From the IMG/VR virus record IMGVR_UViG_3300030055_000003: 64,000 bases of DNA; one strand, given 5' to 3'. The notes under the pieces are model-generated. The model saw only the letters and a list, made by a program, of their open reading frames with translations. It had not been told where the DNA came from and made no database searches. Positions 25,112-62,432 of this stretch are shown here, in pieces. The position numbers and the translations under genes were made by a program. The stretch comes from a virus. Its lineage: Duplodnaviria; Caudoviricetes. The stretch's first letter is position 1; each line of letters starts with the position of its first letter.

Positions 25112-25398
25112 GCCACTATTTGACCTTATATAACATTAAAGGTCAAAGTAGTCACCTAAAAATAGAACGTCTGTGTGGAGCTTATAATGGCATTGTACCC
25201 TATATATAATTATATGTGAGAAGTTATAGTAATATGACTTCTTTTTTCATGTCTAATATTATAAATTTAAAATACAGTAAGTTTATAGTAATTAATAATA
25301 AAAATGTTTTTGACAGAAGTGGTGTTACACAAAAATATATTCGTAAACATTATATATTAATAAATTAATAGAAACACTATTGCAACAATTAGAATATT

Positions 25399-41504: not shown

Positions 41505-41801
41505 ATGAAATTAGCAAATGGAATACAATTAACCGATGGTTCTATTTTAGATGAAGCCTTTTCAGAATTAAAAGAAAAGGTGAAATCTTTATCTGGAGTT
41601 TCTAGTACAGGAGTAACAGATAATACTTATATAGATAGTAAAATAGAAGAAGTAAAAGCTTTAATACCTGTGGTTGATTTAAGTGGATATGCTAAAACTA
41701 CTGATATTGCTGAGGTTGTTAATAGTTTGAATTCTTTAATTGAAGAGTTAAAGGCTGGTAAATATAATGTTAGTGTGGCTAATACAACTACCACAGTATA
41801 G
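41505..41801 (+). CDS. Hypothetical protein
   Basis: 98-aa ORF, AAGGAGG RBS. Confidence 0.7.
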   Translation: MKLANGIQLTDGSILDEAFSELKEKVKSLSGVSSTGVTDNTYIDSKIEEVKALIPVVDLSGYAKTTDIAEVVNSLNSLIEELKAGKYNVSVANTTTTV

Positions 41802-41931
41802 GTAAATTGGATTATTTGACTAAGTAGATTTAGGTTTACTTAGTTGTTTTTTGATATTTATATGTTATTTATTTTAATGGAACTTATTTTTTTGGTAAGT
41901 TGCTAAAGATAAATAAATTAAAATTAAAATA

Positions 41932-41960
41932 TTGACAGTGAATACTCTATGGAGTATAAT
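41932..41960 (+). promoter_or_regulatory. Consensus SigA promoter of leader A / HNH gene
   Basis: TTGACA-17-TATAAT. Confidence 0.85.
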
Positions 41961-41964
41961 TGTG

Positions 41965-42083
41965 ATATAGGATAGATAAGAAAGTCATGAGTCTTATTAA
42001 TAAGTGAGTGTTCCGAAACTCATTTCCTATATTCTAAATAATAAATCGGAATAAATTAAATGCAATCGGAGGTAATAAATATT
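41965..42083 (+). ncRNA. Three-way-junction leader RNA, copy A
   Basis: Outer stem 41965-41972/42025-42032, hairpins ATAAGA/TCTTAT and TGAGT/ACTCA; loop TTCCGA complementary to TCGGA(A/G) at 42046 and 42066 (RBS). Confidence 0.7.
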
Positions 42084-43045
42084 ATGGGGAAAGGTCAATT
42101 TTGGACAATAGAAGATGAAGAATTTTTAAAAGAAAATTACATATATTTATCGAAAGAAGAATTAATGAATAAATTTAATAATAGGACTTGGAAGGGAATA
42201 AGACATAAGGCTAATGATATGGGAGTTAAAAAACAAAACGACTATGAAAATATTTCAAACGATGAATTATATAAAATAGAAGGTGGAATAAAATATAAAT
42301 TATGTAAGTGTTGTAGAAGATATTTACCTTTGGAATTAAAATATTTTCCAAAAGACAATACGTGTACAGATGGGTTTAGAAATATTTGCAAGGAATGTAA
42401 AGGTGAGAACTTTGAGATTTCAAATGCGATTGATTGGACAGATAAAGATGTGGAGTTATTAAAAAAGTTTATTCCAATATGATAAATGAAGATATTATTA
42501 AAGAATATTTTCCAAATAGAAAAATAAAACATCTAACAGATAAATCTTCGAAATTAGGATTAAAGAAAAATAAAGAGACTTTTAATAGATGTAGAATTAT
42601 GAGTTGTGAGGGCAGAATTAAGATATCTAATATTAGAAAAATAGATGGAATTTTTAAAGGAAGAAATAATCCAATGTATGAATCTAAAAGATATGGTAAT
42701 CTTAATCCTAATTGGCAAGGTGGGATTACTTCAGAAAAAAGCAGAATAATGAATACTGAGGAATATAAAAATTGGAGAAAACAAGTTTTTGAAAGAGATA
42801 ATTATACTTGTCAATGTTGTGGTGAGAAAACACATAATAATGAAGCTCATCACATAGATAATTTTGCAGACTATGAAGATAAAAGATTTGATGTTGAAAA
42901 TGGAATGACTTTATGTAAGCAATGTCATAATCCAAATCAAGAAGGAAGTTTTCATAATACTTACGGAACGTTGCACAATAATAAAGAACAGTTAGAAGAA
43001 TATATTGAAAGTAAAACAGATAAAGATTTAAAAGTCGCTAATTAA
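42084..43045 (+). CDS. HNH endonuclease with Myb-like HTH repeats, split over two frames at 42461-42482
   Basis: WTIEDEEFLKENY and WTDKDVELLKK/YSNM repeats, the second spanning the junction; NPNWQGG..VFERDNYTCQCCG..AHHI..NGMTLCKQCH HNH core; probable start ATG 42084. Confidence 0.8.
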
Positions 43046-43060
43046 TTTAGTGGCTTTTTT
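43031..43060 (+). terminator. Intrinsic terminator
   Basis: AAAGTCGCTAA / TTAGTGGCTTT plus T tract. Confidence 0.75.
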
Positions 43061-43096
43061 ATTATGTAAAAAATCAATCAAAGGAGAAATGAGAAA

Positions 43097-43989: not shown

Positions 43990-45780
43990 ATGGCTAACAA
44001 CTTTAAAACAGCAAGACAAAATAATGCAAAAAAAACCAATATACATGAAAAACCTAGACAACAAGAAAAGAAACAAGAAAAAACTTTTGATTATACAGAA
44101 AGGCTAATAGATTGGATTACATTCTATAGACGTAATTTACATAGAGCTGTTCAACATTATTTACAACTAGATTTACATTTATATCAAGCTATAGCATTAT
44201 ACCTAATGAATATATGCCCATTAGTAGTAATAGTTGCATGTAGAGCTTCTGCAAAATCATATATTATAGCTATTTTTGCATGTATAAAAGCGATACTTTA
44301 TCCAAATTCATTAATTGTTATAGCATCAGCCACAAAAAAACAAGCATCTTTAATTGTAACTGAAAAAATAGTTAAAGAATTAATGCCAAAGTCTCCTAAT
44401 TTAAGGAGGGAAATTAAACAAATTAAAACAAGTGGTAATGAAACTGAGGTAATGTTTGTTAATGGAAGTTCAATAGTTGTTGTTCCTGCAACAGATAATG
44501 CGAGAGGATACAGGGCTACTTGCTTGGTATATGAAGAATTTCGGATGATTAAAAAAGATATTATAGATTTTGTATTATCACCATTTTTAATTATACGTCA
44601 AGTACCATATTTGAATAATCCAGAATATGAACATTTAAAAGAAGAACCTACTGAAATATATATAAGTTCAGCATATTTTGCACAACATTGGATGTCTAAA
44701 ATGATAAAATTATCAGTAACTGATATGTATAAAAAATCAGAAGCTCTCTTTTTAGCATTTGATTATTCTATTACATTAAAACATAATATACGTACAAGAA
44801 AACAATTAATTAAAGAAAAGAAAAAATTAGGAACGGTTGCGTATGCAATGGAGTATGAAAACACAATGGTTGGTCAAGGAGAAGATGCTTTCTATTCGTT
44901 TGATTTAATGAATAATGCACAAAGTATGAAAAAAGCCTTTTATCCAAGAACTACTCAAGACGTATTAGAAAAGAAGAAAAATCCACATGACATACCTAAA
45001 CAAAATGGTGAAAAAAGATTAATTTCGGTTGATATAGCTATGGTTAATAATGATAAAAATGATAATACAGTTATAACCTGTATTAGAGCTTTGCCGAGCG
45101 GAGATATCTATGAAAGACAAATACCATATATTGAAGCTTTCAAAGGAGATAATACAACAGTACAAGCAACAAGAATCAAAGAAATATTTTATGATTTTGA
45201 TGCAGATATATTAGTATTAGATACTCAGAATGCAGGATTATCAATAGCAGATGAATTAGGTAAAATAACTTATTCAGAAGAAAGAGATAAAGAATACCCT
45301 CCATTTAAATGCTTTAATGATGAAGATGTTGCTAAAAGAATTAAAAATAAAGATGCTTTGCCTGTATTATTTAGTTATAAAGGTCAATCAAAAATTAATG
45401 AACAAATGCATTATGCTATGAAAGATGCATTAGATAGGAAGAAATTAAAACTATTAATTAATGCTGTTCAAGCGAGAGACTATTTAGATACTAAACCATT
45501 TTATAATAAAAAAGATATTGGACTTGAACAACAAGTATTATATGAACTTGTTTATGTACAAACAGATTTATTGATAAATGAAATGGTAGGTTTAAATCAA
45601 ACTATAAGTAAAGGTTGTTTAGCACTTGAAGAACCTACAGCCTCAGCAACAAAAGATAGATATATTTCATTAGCAATGGGAAATTATTTAATCAAACAAT
45701 GGGAATTGGATTTACAAGAAAAAGATAGTGAAGAATCTTGGTCAGACGCCCCATCATTTGTAACCTCATACACGTTCTAA
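43990..45780 (+). CDS. terL: Terminase large subunit
   Basis: ACRASAKS Walker A variant, ARGYRA, VYEEFR Walker B, ISSA, ISVDIA and KDRY nuclease motifs. Confidence 0.92.
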   Translation: MANNFKTARQNNAKKTNIHEKPRQQEKKQEKTFDYTERLIDWITFYRRNLHRAVQHYLQLDLHLYQAIALYLMNICPLVVIVACRASAKSYIIAIFACIKAILYPNSLIVIASATKKQASLIVTEKIVKELMPKSPNLRREIKQIKTSGNETEVMFVNGSSIVVVPATDNARGYRATCLVYEEFRMIKKDIIDFVLSPFLIIRQVPYLNNPEYEHLKEEPTEIYISSAYFAQHWMSKMIKLSVTDMYKKSEALFLAFDYSITLKHNIRTRKQLIKEKKKLGTVAYAMEYENTMVGQGEDAFYSFDLMNNAQSMKKAFYPRTTQDVLEKKKNPHDIPKQNGEKRLISVDIAMVNNDKNDNTVITCIRALPSGDIYERQIPYIEAFKGDNTTVQATRIKEIFYDFDADILVLDTQNAGLSIADELGKITYSEERDKEYPPFKCFNDEDVAKRIKNKDALPVLFSYKGQSKINEQMHYAMKDALDRKKLKLLINAVQARDYLDTKPFYNKKDIGLEQQVLYELVYVQTDLLINEMVGLNQTISKGCLALEEPTASATKDRYISLAMGNYLIKQWELDLQEKDSEESWSDAPSFVTSYTF

Positions 45781-49280: not shown

Positions 49281-49309
49281 AAATTAAAATTATGAAAGCG
49301 AGGAAATAA
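49281..49309 (+). repeat. 29-bp translation-initiation region duplicated at 49802-49830
   Basis: AAATTAAAATTATGAAAGCGAGGAAATAA identical in front of two consecutive head genes. Confidence 0.85.
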
Positions 49310-49312
49310 ATT

Positions 49313-49774
49313 ATGTTAAGAAATTTACAAACAAACGGAAATGGTGCAAGTAATGGTCAAAATAAAGCTTCAGTTGATATGGTAAGGGGGTCTTTTGTTA
49401 CTGCTGATGAAGCAACAAAAACATTAGCACTTGCAACAGGTATCGCAGGCGTTAAAATCGTAGATAGAGGAACTAAATTAACAGTATCAGTTGCACAAAA
49501 TTTTGCAATATCACCTTATGACGCCGATCAAGATACAATTTTAGCTGGTGAAAGAGGATATTTAAATGATTTAGAAGGTAGATGGGCAACATCAATGTAC
49601 GATTCAACAGTAAATTCAGTATTGGCAATTGGTAGTTATTTAACTATAACTGCTGGTAAATTAGTAGCTTCACCTTTAAATGCAGTTACAATAATTAAAT
49701 TTCTAGGATTAATTCCAGATAACGGACATACATTAGCTGGATTTGAAATAGATGCTACAGTAAAATTAGCTTAA
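49313..49774 (+). CDS. Capsid decoration / cement protein
   Basis: 153 aa, Ala/Gly/Thr-rich, between scaffold and MCP. Confidence 0.65.
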   Translation: MLRNLQTNGNGASNGQNKASVDMVRGSFVTADEATKTLALATGIAGVKIVDRGTKLTVSVAQNFAISPYDADQDTILAGERGYLNDLEGRWATSMYDSTVNSVLAIGSYLTITAGKLVASPLNAVTIIKFLGLIPDNGHTLAGFEIDATVKLA

Positions 49775-49829
49775 TAAATTAAAAACAATATTAACAAAAA
49801 TAAATTAAAATTATGAAAGCGAGGAAATA

Positions 49830-50825
49830 ATGATGAATATAGAATTAAGTAATCACGTAAAAGAAAGAGGTACTATGTATGAATGGGCAGAAAAAGTAGT
49901 AGGGAAAAAGGAACTTTCACCAGACCAAATTATAATTTCCGAATCAATGAATAAGTGGGCATTAGAAATTGCAAATAGTGGAACAACTAATGTAGCATTA
50001 TCTGATTATCTACAAAGAGTTGTTCAAGAACAAATTTATGATGAACCATCACAATTATTAGATACAATGTTTAATCAAGGTTCAATTGGAGAATTTGATG
50101 ATTATAATTCAATCGGAACTTATAAAAATAATCTATTAGCACATGAAGTTTCTGAAAGAGGCGGTTCTGTTGATAAGTCTTATGTAGATTTCAGTAGATA
50201 TTCAATGGTACATACAAACTTACAAATAGAAACTGAATTAAGATATGATGAACTAAGAAGAAATGGTGCTATGACAATTGCACAATTAACTCTTTATGCA
50301 ATTGAATCATTACAAAATAAAAAGTTCCAATCAATATTTACTAACCTTAATACATTGTTAGTATCAGGTTCAAATGTATTTGATGCAACTGGTGGATTAA
50401 CAGTTCAATTAATGGATGATTTTGCAGGTTATGTAACAGACCATTCATTTACAGGTCAACAATTAATTACTGGTTTGTCAACTGATTTAAGAGATATCAA
50501 GAATATGCCAGGATATACAGACTTCTTATCTTATACTATGAAGGATGCTTTAAACATGGGTTCTGGTGTACTTAGTGTATATAACAGTGTTCCATTAGCT
50601 TCTATTTCTGCTGGTAAATTACTTGCAGATGGAAGCACTTTAATTCCAGCAAAAACAATCTATGGTTTCTCAGACAAAATTGGTCAATGTGATATGAGAG
50701 GATCTTTAAGAGTCCTACAAACTCCAGACAATGCTAAAGAAGTAATCAGATTGAAATTTACTGGATATGAATTCATTTATGCAATAGATAAATTAGAAAA
50801 AGTTTCAAAAATTAAAGTAAAATAA
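49830..50825 (+). CDS. Major capsid protein
   Basis: 331 aa, position, followed by a strong terminator (50841-50865). Confidence 0.8.
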   Translation: MMNIELSNHVKERGTMYEWAEKVVGKKELSPDQIIISESMNKWALEIANSGTTNVALSDYLQRVVQEQIYDEPSQLLDTMFNQGSIGEFDDYNSIGTYKNNLLAHEVSERGGSVDKSYVDFSRYSMVHTNLQIETELRYDELRRNGAMTIAQLTLYAIESLQNKKFQSIFTNLNTLLVSGSNVFDATGGLTVQLMDDFAGYVTDHSFTGQQLITGLSTDLRDIKNMPGYTDFLSYTMKDALNMGSGVLSVYNSVPLASISAGKLLADGSTLIPAKTIYGFSDKIGQCDMRGSLRVLQTPDNAKEVIRLKFTGYEFIYAIDKLEKVSKIKVK

Positions 50826-53450: not shown

Positions 53451-53456
53451 AAATTT

Positions 53457-53575
53457 AGGAAGATTACTTAGTATAAGGTTCGAAACTTATACTAAGGACA
53501 GGGTTTTTCATGTGCCTTTCTTTCTTTTATAAAATACACATGAAAATAAATTATAACATGAAGGAGATAATACAT
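53457..53575 (+). ncRNA. Three-way-junction leader RNA, copy B
   Basis: Perfect 11-bp hairpin 53467-53496 with GTTCGAAA loop; TTTTCATGTG (53505-53514) complementary to 53537-53546 and ACATGAA 53556-53562 at the RBS. Confidence 0.7.
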
Positions 53576-55207
53576 ATGAATGAAAAGGAATATTTAGAAT
53601 TTATTAAACAGTGGAAAGAAGAGAATAAGGAATTAATTAAAAGTGGTAAGTGTAGAAAAACTTTTTTAGAATGTTTACCTAGGAAGTATGGAGTCGGTGG
53701 AAATAAAAATAAATTAGTTATTGATTGGATAAATTCAATTGGATATAATGTGTATTTTATATACGAAAATATTATAGGGTGGATTGAAATTATTAGTTAT
53801 AAAAAAGATAAAAGAATATTAAAAGTAAAATACAACAAATTTGAATCAGAGATAAATACTAATCAAATGTCAAACTGTAATATAGGAAGAATTATAGGAA
53901 AAATCACATCAGAATTCAAAATAGAAATTGGACAAACTTTTAAAGATAACAAAAGAGATATAACTGTAACTGATAAAGAAATTAGAATTAGATATAAAAA
54001 AGATGGTTCTTTGTGCAATGATAAATGGTACAAATACACTTGTAACGTTTGTAGTTGGAATGAAGGGTGGATGACAGAAGGAGATTTATTAAGAAAAGAA
54101 AAACGAGGATGTTCATGTTGTTCTGGGAAAACACTTATAGAAGGTATTAATGATGTAGCTACAATATCACCTTGTATAGTTAAATATTTTCAAGATGGTT
54201 ATGATGAGGCTAAGAAGTATACAAAATGGGGAAGTGGAAACCCTGATAATCCAAAAGGTTATATCTATCCTATCTGTCCTGATTGTGGAAGAGTTAAAAA
54301 AAAGAAAACTAATATTGGTTATATTTACAAATCACATTCAATAGGGTGTTCTTGTAGTGATAATATTTCAAAAGGGGAAAAATATGTTTTTAGTTTATTA
54401 GAACAAATAGGTATAAAATTTATAACTCAATTATCAAAAAGAGAACAATCGTGGTGTAATAATTATAGATATGATTTTTATTTTCAGTTAGGTAATAAAG
54501 AAAATTATATAATAGAAGTAAATGGACAACAACATTACGAAGAAAATACTAATTTTGAAATGAATTTGGATGAACAGGTAGAGAATGATAAAAACAAAAA
54601 AGAACTAGCATTAAAAAATGACACAAAAGAAGAAAACTATATTATTATTGATTACAGAAAAGCTGATTTAAATTTGCTAAGAAAAAATATATTGAATGAT
54701 AAAATATTAAATGAATTATTTGATTTAAGTAAAATTAATTGGATAAAATGCTATGAATTTGCTTTGTCTAACTTAGTAAAAAAAGCTTGTGAACTTAAAA
54801 AACAAAATCCTAAGATGACTACTACTGAAATAGGTAAATTAATGGGAGGATATTGTAGGCTTTCAATTCAAAAATGGTTAGAATCTGGTAATGAATTGGG
54901 CTGGTGTCACTATAATAAAAATGAAGAAATAAATCAAAATTATAAAAACAGTGTAATAAGAAATAAGAAAAATTATTCAAAACCAGTAGAAATATTTAAA
55001 GATGGAATTAGTCTAGGTTTATTCCCCTCAGCTAGTGAATTAGAAAGACAAAGCATAGAACTTTTTAAAGTAAAATTAATTAGAAGTAATATTACTTTAG
55101 TCTGCCAAGAAAAACAAAAGCATCATAAAGGTTATGAATTTAATTATTTAACACAAGAAGAATATGATAGAAGGAAAAATGAAGAAAATTTAAAACAAGC
55201 AATATAA
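53576..55207 (+). CDS. Free-standing Zn-ribbon + Vsr/DUF559-like endonuclease with NUMOD1-like C-term
   Basis: CNVC, CSCC, CPDCG; YRYDFYF..IIEVNGQQHY; HKGYEFNY; probable start 53576. Confidence 0.78.
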   Translation: MNEKEYLEFIKQWKEENKELIKSGKCRKTFLECLPRKYGVGGNKNKLVIDWINSIGYNVYFIYENIIGWIEIISYKKDKRILKVKYNKFESEINTNQMSNCNIGRIIGKITSEFKIEIGQTFKDNKRDITVTDKEIRIRYKKDGSLCNDKWYKYTCNVCSWNEGWMTEGDLLRKEKRGCSCCSGKTLIEGINDVATISPCIVKYFQDGYDEAKKYTKWGSGNPDNPKGYIYPICPDCGRVKKKKTNIGYIYKSHSIGCSCSDNISKGEKYVFSLLEQIGIKFITQLSKREQSWCNNYRYDFYFQLGNKENYIIEVNGQQHYEENTNFEMNLDEQVENDKNKKELALKNDTKEENYIIIDYRKADLNLLRKNILNDKILNELFDLSKINWIKCYEFALSNLVKKACELKKQNPKMTTTEIGKLMGGYCRLSIQKWLESGNELGWCHYNKNEEINQNYKNSVIRNKKNYSKPVEIFKDGISLGLFPSASELERQSIELFKVKLIRSNITLVCQEKQKHHKGYEFNYLTQEEYDRRKNEENLKQAI

Positions 55208-62017: not shown

Positions 62018-62310
62018 AAAAACACCTCCTTTATAAAGTATTTTATTTTGGAAACAATAATATTTCTAATGTAAAATACTTTAAAGAAGATGGCAAAGAG
62101 TTATGAATGGATACAATATTCTATATTAATTTAGATATAATGTTTTATTTTAAATAGGTTTAGTTTCATTTTCATAACATTTCATTTTTTCCCTTTATCT
62201 ATTTTAATATAGTATGTTTATTATACCATAAAATTGGAAAACTGTAAAATTAGATATAAAATTTTAGGATTGATTATAAATTACTTGAAAAAGTGTTATA
62301 ATATAGATAT

Positions 62311-62432
62311 GGAAGGATAGATATATGAAGGGTTGCAAACTGGATTATATTGATAAGTGAATTTCGACCTCACTTCCTTTCTATTTTTATAAAATGGTCG
62401 AATAAATTAAATTATGAAAGGTCGAGATTGTA
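62311..62432 (+). ncRNA. Three-way-junction leader RNA, copy C
   Basis: Outer stem GGAAGGA/TCCTTTC, hairpin AAGTGA/TCACTT; loop TTCGACC(T) complementary to GGTCGAA 62396-62402 and AGGTCGA 62419-62425. Confidence 0.72.

Follow-up and report, generated by a model that had tools for sequence, protein, structure and literature searches.

Homing endonucleases are selfish and potentially toxic enzymes. Concealment of the Shine-Dalgarno (SD) sequence in a pseudoknot is characteristic of the preQ1-II and SAM-II riboswitches, and HIV-1 DIS is a kissing-loop dimerisation site. For the T4 genes of I-TevI, I-TevII, I-TevIII and segB and for Aeh1 mobE, RNA structure was described to hide the ribosome-binding site on long transcripts, and in genes of the T4 family a late promoter located between the inhibitory arm and the ribosome-binding site yields short transcripts that can be translated (PMC2988022). 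Another related architecture is int-alpA (Rfam RF02996), which is given without an assigned function where it is described by Weinberg et al. (2017; PMC5737381).

The locus considered here belongs to a low-GC peat-soil phage, probably of more than 200 kb, whose terminase is closest to those of Lysinibacillus phage LC76P1 (43%) and of SPbeta-like Bacillus phages. As a separate observation on the terminase, the close relatives L035 and L036 contain about 308 extra bases (2021-2329) in the large-terminase gene in comparison with 44510-44525 of the window, by which the whole analysed stretch of 64,000 nucleotides is meant; this insert could be a small intron or an insertion. Leader A precedes an HNH homing-endonuclease gene of the window (Table 1) and was found with zero differences in contigs of all four peat metagenome runs that were compared, 24 runs being listed with the stretch. 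As in T4-type sequestration, the SD of a homing-endonuclease gene is complementary here to an upstream RNA segment; however, the T4 structures are simple local hairpins that possess neither a three-way junction, a decoy nor a palindromic loop and do not make up a conserved portable RNA family. With preQ1-II and SAM-II leader A shares the predicted pseudoknot pairing of a hairpin loop with the SD, but conserved ligand-pocket nucleotides are absent from the leaders, their junction and loops drift and covary, and a competitor site replaces the ligand. We hold, with somewhat more confidence than doubt, that leader A acts as a cis-acting bistable gate on initiation of nuclease translation within a self-contained homing-endonuclease cassette.

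Table 1. Features of the leader A cassette and location of leaders B and C in the window
Feature	Position	Strand	Remarks
Promoter of sigma-70/sigma-A type, TTGACA-17-TATAAT	41932-41960	+	Consensus match 12/12
Three-way-junction leader core	41964-42033	+	Minimum-energy fold and compensatory changes
P1	41964/5-41972 with 42025-42033	+	
P2	41976-81 with 41992-97	+	ATAAGA paired with TCTTAT; loop AAGTCATGAG
P2 loop AAGUCAUGAG	41982-41991	+	Palindrome UCAUGA 41985-41990, purine-flanked
P3	42002/3-42009 with 42018-42024/5	+	Loop GTTCCGAA 42010-17
P3 loop GUUCCGAA	42010-42017	+	Core UUCCGA, the anti-Shine-Dalgarno "code", complementary to both downstream sites
Site 1 (decoy), UCGGAA 42046-51	42046-42053	+	Extends to UCGGAAUA with one G-U pair
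Conserved spacer AAUAAAUUA	42050-42058	+	Between site 1 and site 2; copy of a genome-wide intergenic motif
Site 2, UCGGAG 42066-71	42066-42072	+	Overlaps Shine-Dalgarno GGAGG 42068-72, 11 nt upstream of ATG 42084
HNH homing-endonuclease gene, two frames	42084-43045	+	Pfam HNH E 2.4e-6; PHROG HNH families
ORF1	42084-42482	+	
ORF2 (HNH domain)	42479-43045	+	Joined to ORF1 only by a -1 shift
Slip heptamer A_AAA_AAG	42461-42467		Zero-frame codons AAA AAG, 12 nt before the ORF1 stop
Intrinsic-terminator-like hairpin and T run	43030-43066	+	Closes the cassette
Leader copy B	53454-53576		Layout as A, other sequence
Leader copy C	62307-62430		Layout as A, other sequence

A preliminary description of the locus had proposed an outer stem, two hairpins and two targets of the second hairpin loop, TCGGAA and TCGGAG, the latter at the SD of the nuclease gene. 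All these elements are present at the proposed coordinates to the base, and the minimum-energy fold of 41963-42034 (72 nt) is exactly the same P1/P2/P3 junction, in which T42025 is unable to serve P3 and P1 both. The energy of this core is -18.0 kcal/mol versus -9.7 ± 2.4 kcal/mol for shuffled sequences (z -3.43), none of 200 shuffles being equally stable. The 131-nt stretch that includes the tail is of ordinary stability in comparison with shuffles (z -0.10) because the tail is unstructured, and thus by energy the core alone stands out. Promoters of the type located upstream of leader A occur three times in the window versus 0.33 expected; the predicted start of the leader A transcript coincides with the 5' edge of P1, and relatives of leader A carry TGnTATAAT 7-9 nt upstream of P1.

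Leader layout with a fourth code was recognized in L007, a relative of nuclease C from another IMG/VR contig. Since A, B and C were out of structural register when aligned with MAFFT, the model was seeded from this one relative; the single-sequence model ranked B first, C second and A fourth in the window and detected further leader copies in five phage contigs. The covariance model R2, built from five leaders of other IMG/VR contigs and zero window sequences, gave 51.2 bits for B, 43.7 for A and 41.2 for C, with the next window match at 21.7, and with models free of window sequence these three leaders are the only strong matches in the window. The earlier view that B and C share the architecture of A, each with its own sequence code, is therefore borne out by the layout and by R2, and the outcome named as its refutation, chance-level matches without conserved stems, is contradicted by the 41-51 versus 22 bits and by alignment A7, where in 12 members compensatory changes were found at all 27 of 27 stem pairs. 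Pairing in A7 reaches 88% of cells versus 64% for column shuffles and 42-52% with the partner slid, figures which are favoured somewhat by the fitting of A7 to the model. Compensatory changes in P3 and, as A-U to G-C, in P2 also distinguish leader A from L018 and L155. About nine contigs supplied the members. Most of them belong to the phage's own peat series, many are probably related phages, and the sequences are non-independent; L145, L130, L155 and L158/L159 were added by an IMG/VR pattern scan for the A-like subtype and by further model searches. An initial home-made scan of the whole window for a loop with two sites was swamped by AT-rich noise and was replaced by an anchored scan and the covariance models.

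Searches outside this set were negative. Rfam scans returned nothing at the leaders, the leader had no real counterpart among cultured phages by blastn, R2 had no match in Lysinibacillus phage LC76P1, whose terminase is the nearest among cultured phages, and model R3 had none in 151 genomes of one bacterial class, in a weak search with 23 candidates scored per genome. The sole Rfam match of the window lies elsewhere and is the known candidate drum RNA (RF02958; 36245-36355, + strand), with 55.9 bits versus the gathering score of 43. A riboswitch was also considered for the leaders and rejected, there being no Rfam match and no invariant paired position in A7, and the loops covarying with their targets.

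The covariance model cannot represent a pseudoknot, and the statistics of loop and sites given here are home-made. In 12/12 members the P3 loop is complementary to two sites at fixed distances, namely site 1, located 16-21 nt past P1 in all 12, and site 2, located 35-47 nt past P1 on or adjoining the SD. At least eight loop codes carry out this complementarity: UUCCGA, UUUUCAUGUG, UUCGACC, CUCCAAU, UCUCAAUC, UUACUAACC, UAUUGACC, UAUCCUAG and AUCAACCU. The summed score of cognate loop-tail pairing was 83.5, whereas loop-tail permutations averaged 53.7 and went no higher than 74; the cognate score was reached by none of the 20000 permutations and none of 2000 shuffled loops. In leader A the two sites differ by one A-to-G change, which keeps the pairing with the loop U as G-U. 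Such differences, mostly A/G or C/U facing U or G of the loop and retaining the pair as G-U, are found in A, B, C, L027, L028, L039 and L130, and in L039 two wobbles occur at site 1 where site 2 is Watson-Crick; this compatibility with G-U points to RNA pairing and not to a DNA operator. The calculated duplex energies of both alternatives range over the members from -5.6 to -14.6 kcal/mol and are of similar size, which fits what a toggle needs. Site 1 is the stronger partner in 7/12 members, including leader A (-10.3 kcal/mol for site 1 and -7.6 kcal/mol for site 2), and consequently the SD may be mostly free at equilibrium, with the leader being permissive rather than a brake.

The P2 loop has a different kind of regularity. 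A purine-flanked 6-nt palindrome is present there in 12/12 members and is of seven kinds, i.e., UUCGAA, UUGCAA, GUCGAC, UCGCGA, UGAUCA and UAAUUA besides the UCAUGA of leader A; the chance of a palindrome is 5-18% per composition-matched shuffled P2 loop. Close relatives swap the sequence and keep the palindromy (UUGCAA in L028, UUCGAA in L039, UAAUUA in L130), and the members added later, L145 with TTCGAA and L130 and L158/L159 with TAATTA, agree with this. Three different palindromes belong to the three window leaders, and four different ones to four of the leaders of G002. In its form the P2 loop resembles kissing-loop dimerisation sites such as HIV-1 DIS, with which it has in common six self-complementary nucleotides, unpaired purine flanks and a hairpin loop of 8-10 nt; DIS is a packaging signal, whereas leader A is an mRNA leader of a bacterial virus. 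The palindromic loop could let two copies of one and the same leader kiss.

The spacer AAUAAAUUA located between the two sites is kept in nearly all leaders, yet it is not private to them. In the window it has 54 copies versus 16.6 ± 3.8 expected, the motif AATAAATTA being 3.2-fold over-represented (for example at 25359, 35347, 36989, 41471 and 58809) and often lengthened to AATAAATTAATAGAA. Intergenic copies make up 39 of the 54 (72%), with 22% of the window being non-coding; the motif follows the gene strand, and 12 copies are located 12-36 nt upstream of a start codon. In related phages it exceeds the reversed word 2-2.5-fold and is arranged in strand blocks. The simplest reading of the motif is a putative promoter or processing signal specific to the phage; as a candidate promoter it would lie downstream of the inhibitory arm and upstream of the SD, which is the position of the T4 late promoter. 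Two neighbouring genes are preceded by near-identical ribosome-binding modules (..aaattatgaaagcgaggaaataa..; 49290-49313 and 49808-49830), which the leader C spacer resembles.

The genes downstream of the leaders were surveyed over 12-14 distinct members, and all of them are of homing-endonuclease type. Leader A is followed by the HNH gene and L027 by a GIY-YIG/NUMOD1 gene, a family of about 500-aa zinc-finger proteins follows B, C, L010, L015, L018, L028, L030, L145 and L155, and the others are followed by genes to which PHROGs assign the label of homing endonucleases. The survey of following gene families with covariance models, which the preliminary description had suggested, revealed several nuclease families (HNH, GIY-YIG and zinc-finger), in support of its claim that the RNA module is bound to no single family. 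The assignment of leader A to an HNH gene holds as well, while the "Vsr-like" label that had been given to the B and C nucleases is only loosely backed, by the core motif D..E.DG..H of the zinc-finger family and by weak matches of an AlphaFold model for this family (pLDDT 81) to PD-(D/E)xK nucleases; the model also weakly matched the DNA-binding region of I-HmuI. These Foldseek matches had E>0.008, with none at E<=0.001; the B/C family profile gave no match against PDB sequences, and no relatives of the gene B protein were found among viral contigs.

The HNH gene of leader A is split between two frames, and a -1 slip at the heptamer would carry a repeat motif into ORF2 (..LLKKVYSNMINED..). Its relatives L004 and L042 have a single intact ORF. 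As the split stretch is identical in contigs of four peat runs, it is a real allele, and the gene may be a candidate for programmed frameshifting or else a recent pseudogene.

Leaders and nuclease genes have different relatives. The nearest relatives of leader A, L018 and L155, agree with it over about 85% of the junction, carry its UUCCGA code as well as its UCAUGA palindrome, and head genes of the zinc-finger family, not HNH genes. The nearest homologues of the HNH gene, L042 (81% nt) and the more distant L004, are without a leader, and in phages with 92% identical terminase this HNH gene is present at about 81% nt with the leader absent. Only from 42074 on, at a point that separates the SD from the ATG, is the leader-less relative again homologous to the window; upstream of the HNH gene the window has 309 nt (41765-42074) versus 1.47 kb with two other ORFs in the relative. 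At the place of leader A, L042 contains an intergenic stretch (1390-1600) of markedly higher GC, flanked by a 244-aa ORF and by a small ORF of DUF5659-like type; this stretch could represent a further structured RNA. Contig G152 carries two identical 113-nt leaders, L158 (186664-186776) and L159 (190714-190826), on opposite strands 4 kb apart, and each precedes a different, diverged nuclease paralogue. Because the nearest leaders belong to another gene family, the HNH homologues are leader-less and the G152 leaders are identical, the proposal of a portable cassette gains support, and the leader with its promoter and SD appears to move as a module.

Of the described RNA families int-alpA has the same order of elements as the leaders, i.e., P1, UA(G), P2, an A-rich joiner, P3, P1', a pyrimidine/U tract and a purine-rich site that can pair with the P3 loop, although the joiner is GAAAA in int-alpA and UGAA/UAAU in the leaders and the U tract of leader A is weak. 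In a Comamonas instance (control L088; 58.5 bits against RF02996) the order is P1, UAG, short P2, GAAAA, P3 with a CCU-containing loop, P1', U run and AGGG. Among 29 Burkholderiales instances a match of the loop to site 1 was found in 25, a second copy of the site 3-11 nt downstream in 23, and a start codon after the second copy in 22. At many of the int-alpA loci L094-L123 a short hairpin immediately precedes the start codon and holds the second site, which is the SD, in its loop, an arrangement that suggests a loop-loop contact. The two groups differ in GC content (about 27-35% in the phage leaders versus 61% in int-alpA, the latter figure from one match with reported GC) and in P2, which is long with a 6-nt palindromic loop in the leaders and a 4-bp hairpin without consistent palindrome in int-alpA. 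Unlike int-alpA, the leaders head nuclease genes, have codes of 6-11 nt that extend past the SD, and carry AAUAAAUUA between sites that are separated by 12-20 nt. RF02996 (gathering score 35.8 bits) found nothing at E<=10 on 41900-42150, on five relatives and on five whole phage contigs; R2 gave 0 matches at E<=10 on 20 int-alpA loci; and int-alpA was not found in E. coli K-12, either near alpA or genome-wide. Since neither covariance model detects the other family and int-alpA has no long palindromic P2, membership is withheld, and leader A is filed as a variant of that kind that presumably works like int-alpA and is not a demonstrated member.

In the proposed gate the cassette would consist of its own promoter, leader A as 5' untranslated RNA, the HNH gene and the terminator. 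The P3 loop would pair alternatively with the decoy site 1 or with site 2 at the SD, so that the ribosome would be blocked with the loop on site 2 and would bind with the loop on site 1. The gate may keep nuclease translation low or timed, and since the arbitrary code of loop and sites differs per cassette, each leader would address its own message only. Should AAUAAAUUA act as a phage promoter, short transcripts without the gate would arise from it, as in T4 I-TevI, segB and mobE. The regulatory nature of the leader, which the preliminary description had already proposed, is inferred from sequence, and the leader probably sets the amount of enzyme made.

An extended form of the gate, which we regard as doubtful and put forward tentatively, would combine it with the P2 palindrome. 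At a high level of transcript, and hence of genome copies, the private palindrome would bring about kissing between copies of the same leader, the P3 loop would shift from the decoy to the SD, and the nuclease would in this way cap its own translation according to mRNA concentration, int-alpA being a simpler form of the device. If true, the private loop codes would insulate each selfish nuclease of the phage from its remaining cassettes.

Among the alternatives to the gate, a separate small RNA of about 75 nt survives best, but we consider it unlikely. The sigma-A transcript would end at the U-rich tract past P1 and its P3 loop would block the SD in trans, as an antisense or antitoxin-type regulator, with the nuclease mRNA starting at AAUAAAUUA and site 1 being left for readthrough RNAs. 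A run of U4-U6 directly past P1 in 8/11 members and the stacking of P3 on P1 are in agreement with such a transcript, as are the typing of int-alpA as sRNA in Rfam, the U run past P1 in the int-alpA consensus and the behaviour of AAUAAAUUA as a genome-wide gene-oriented upstream signal. The U run is, however, missing in leader A, L018 and L155. In leader A two of the P1 pairs are G-C and no U run is formed by the tail UCUAAAUAAU, which is not the form of a terminator or of a stand-alone sRNA; no terminator was called at 42025-42045, P1 being AU/GA-rich and a poor terminator stem, and site 1, kept in all members, has no role for a free small RNA.

It is also rather improbable that the fold mainly protects or processes the RNA, either as a 5' helix acting against 5'-end-dependent RNases or as a kissing dimer that is the substrate of a double-strand RNase, with the loop-site pairing being secondary. 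In 11/12 members the -10 element is located 7-9 nt before P1, so that the 5' end of the transcript would be buried in P1, and the palindromic P2 loop of all members suits the kissing dimer; both observations fit this explanation, but it leaves two covarying target sites, one of them always at the SD, unexplained, and it is compatible with the translation gate rather than exclusive of it.

That the repeats are DNA operators seems very improbable. The inverted loop, the direct sites 1 and 2 and the P2 palindrome would then bind a protein, for example the nuclease repressing itself, and the precedent is I-TevI, which represses its own late promoter via an operator resembling its homing site (PMC2988022); sites 1 and 2 do flank a promoter-like motif. 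Nevertheless, one and the same CTCCAAT precedes GIY-YIG (L027) and zinc-finger genes (L010, L015), and TTCCGA precedes HNH (A) and the zinc-finger family (L018). Moreover, the differences between sites are G-U-compatible transitions, the stem changes are compensatory and not conserved, and purine-purine mismatches flank the palindrome, so P2 is no continuous DNA palindrome. A chance fold in AT-rich intergenic DNA, to which only the shuffle-like stability of the whole 131 nt would correspond, has practically no probability left, as the covariation and the independent model search already contradict it, together with the permutation test and the z value of the core.

In summary, the known controls of homing-endonuclease genes in T4 are ad hoc hairpins, whereas here a conserved portable module is found across unrelated nuclease families and keeps three covarying features, i.e., the stems, the anti-SD loop with its two targets and the palindromic loop. 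The leaders give the orphan Rfam architecture int-alpA a testable function and would constitute a natural set of orthogonal, sequence-programmable translation gates. They also suggest how one phage genome may leash several selfish nucleases individually.
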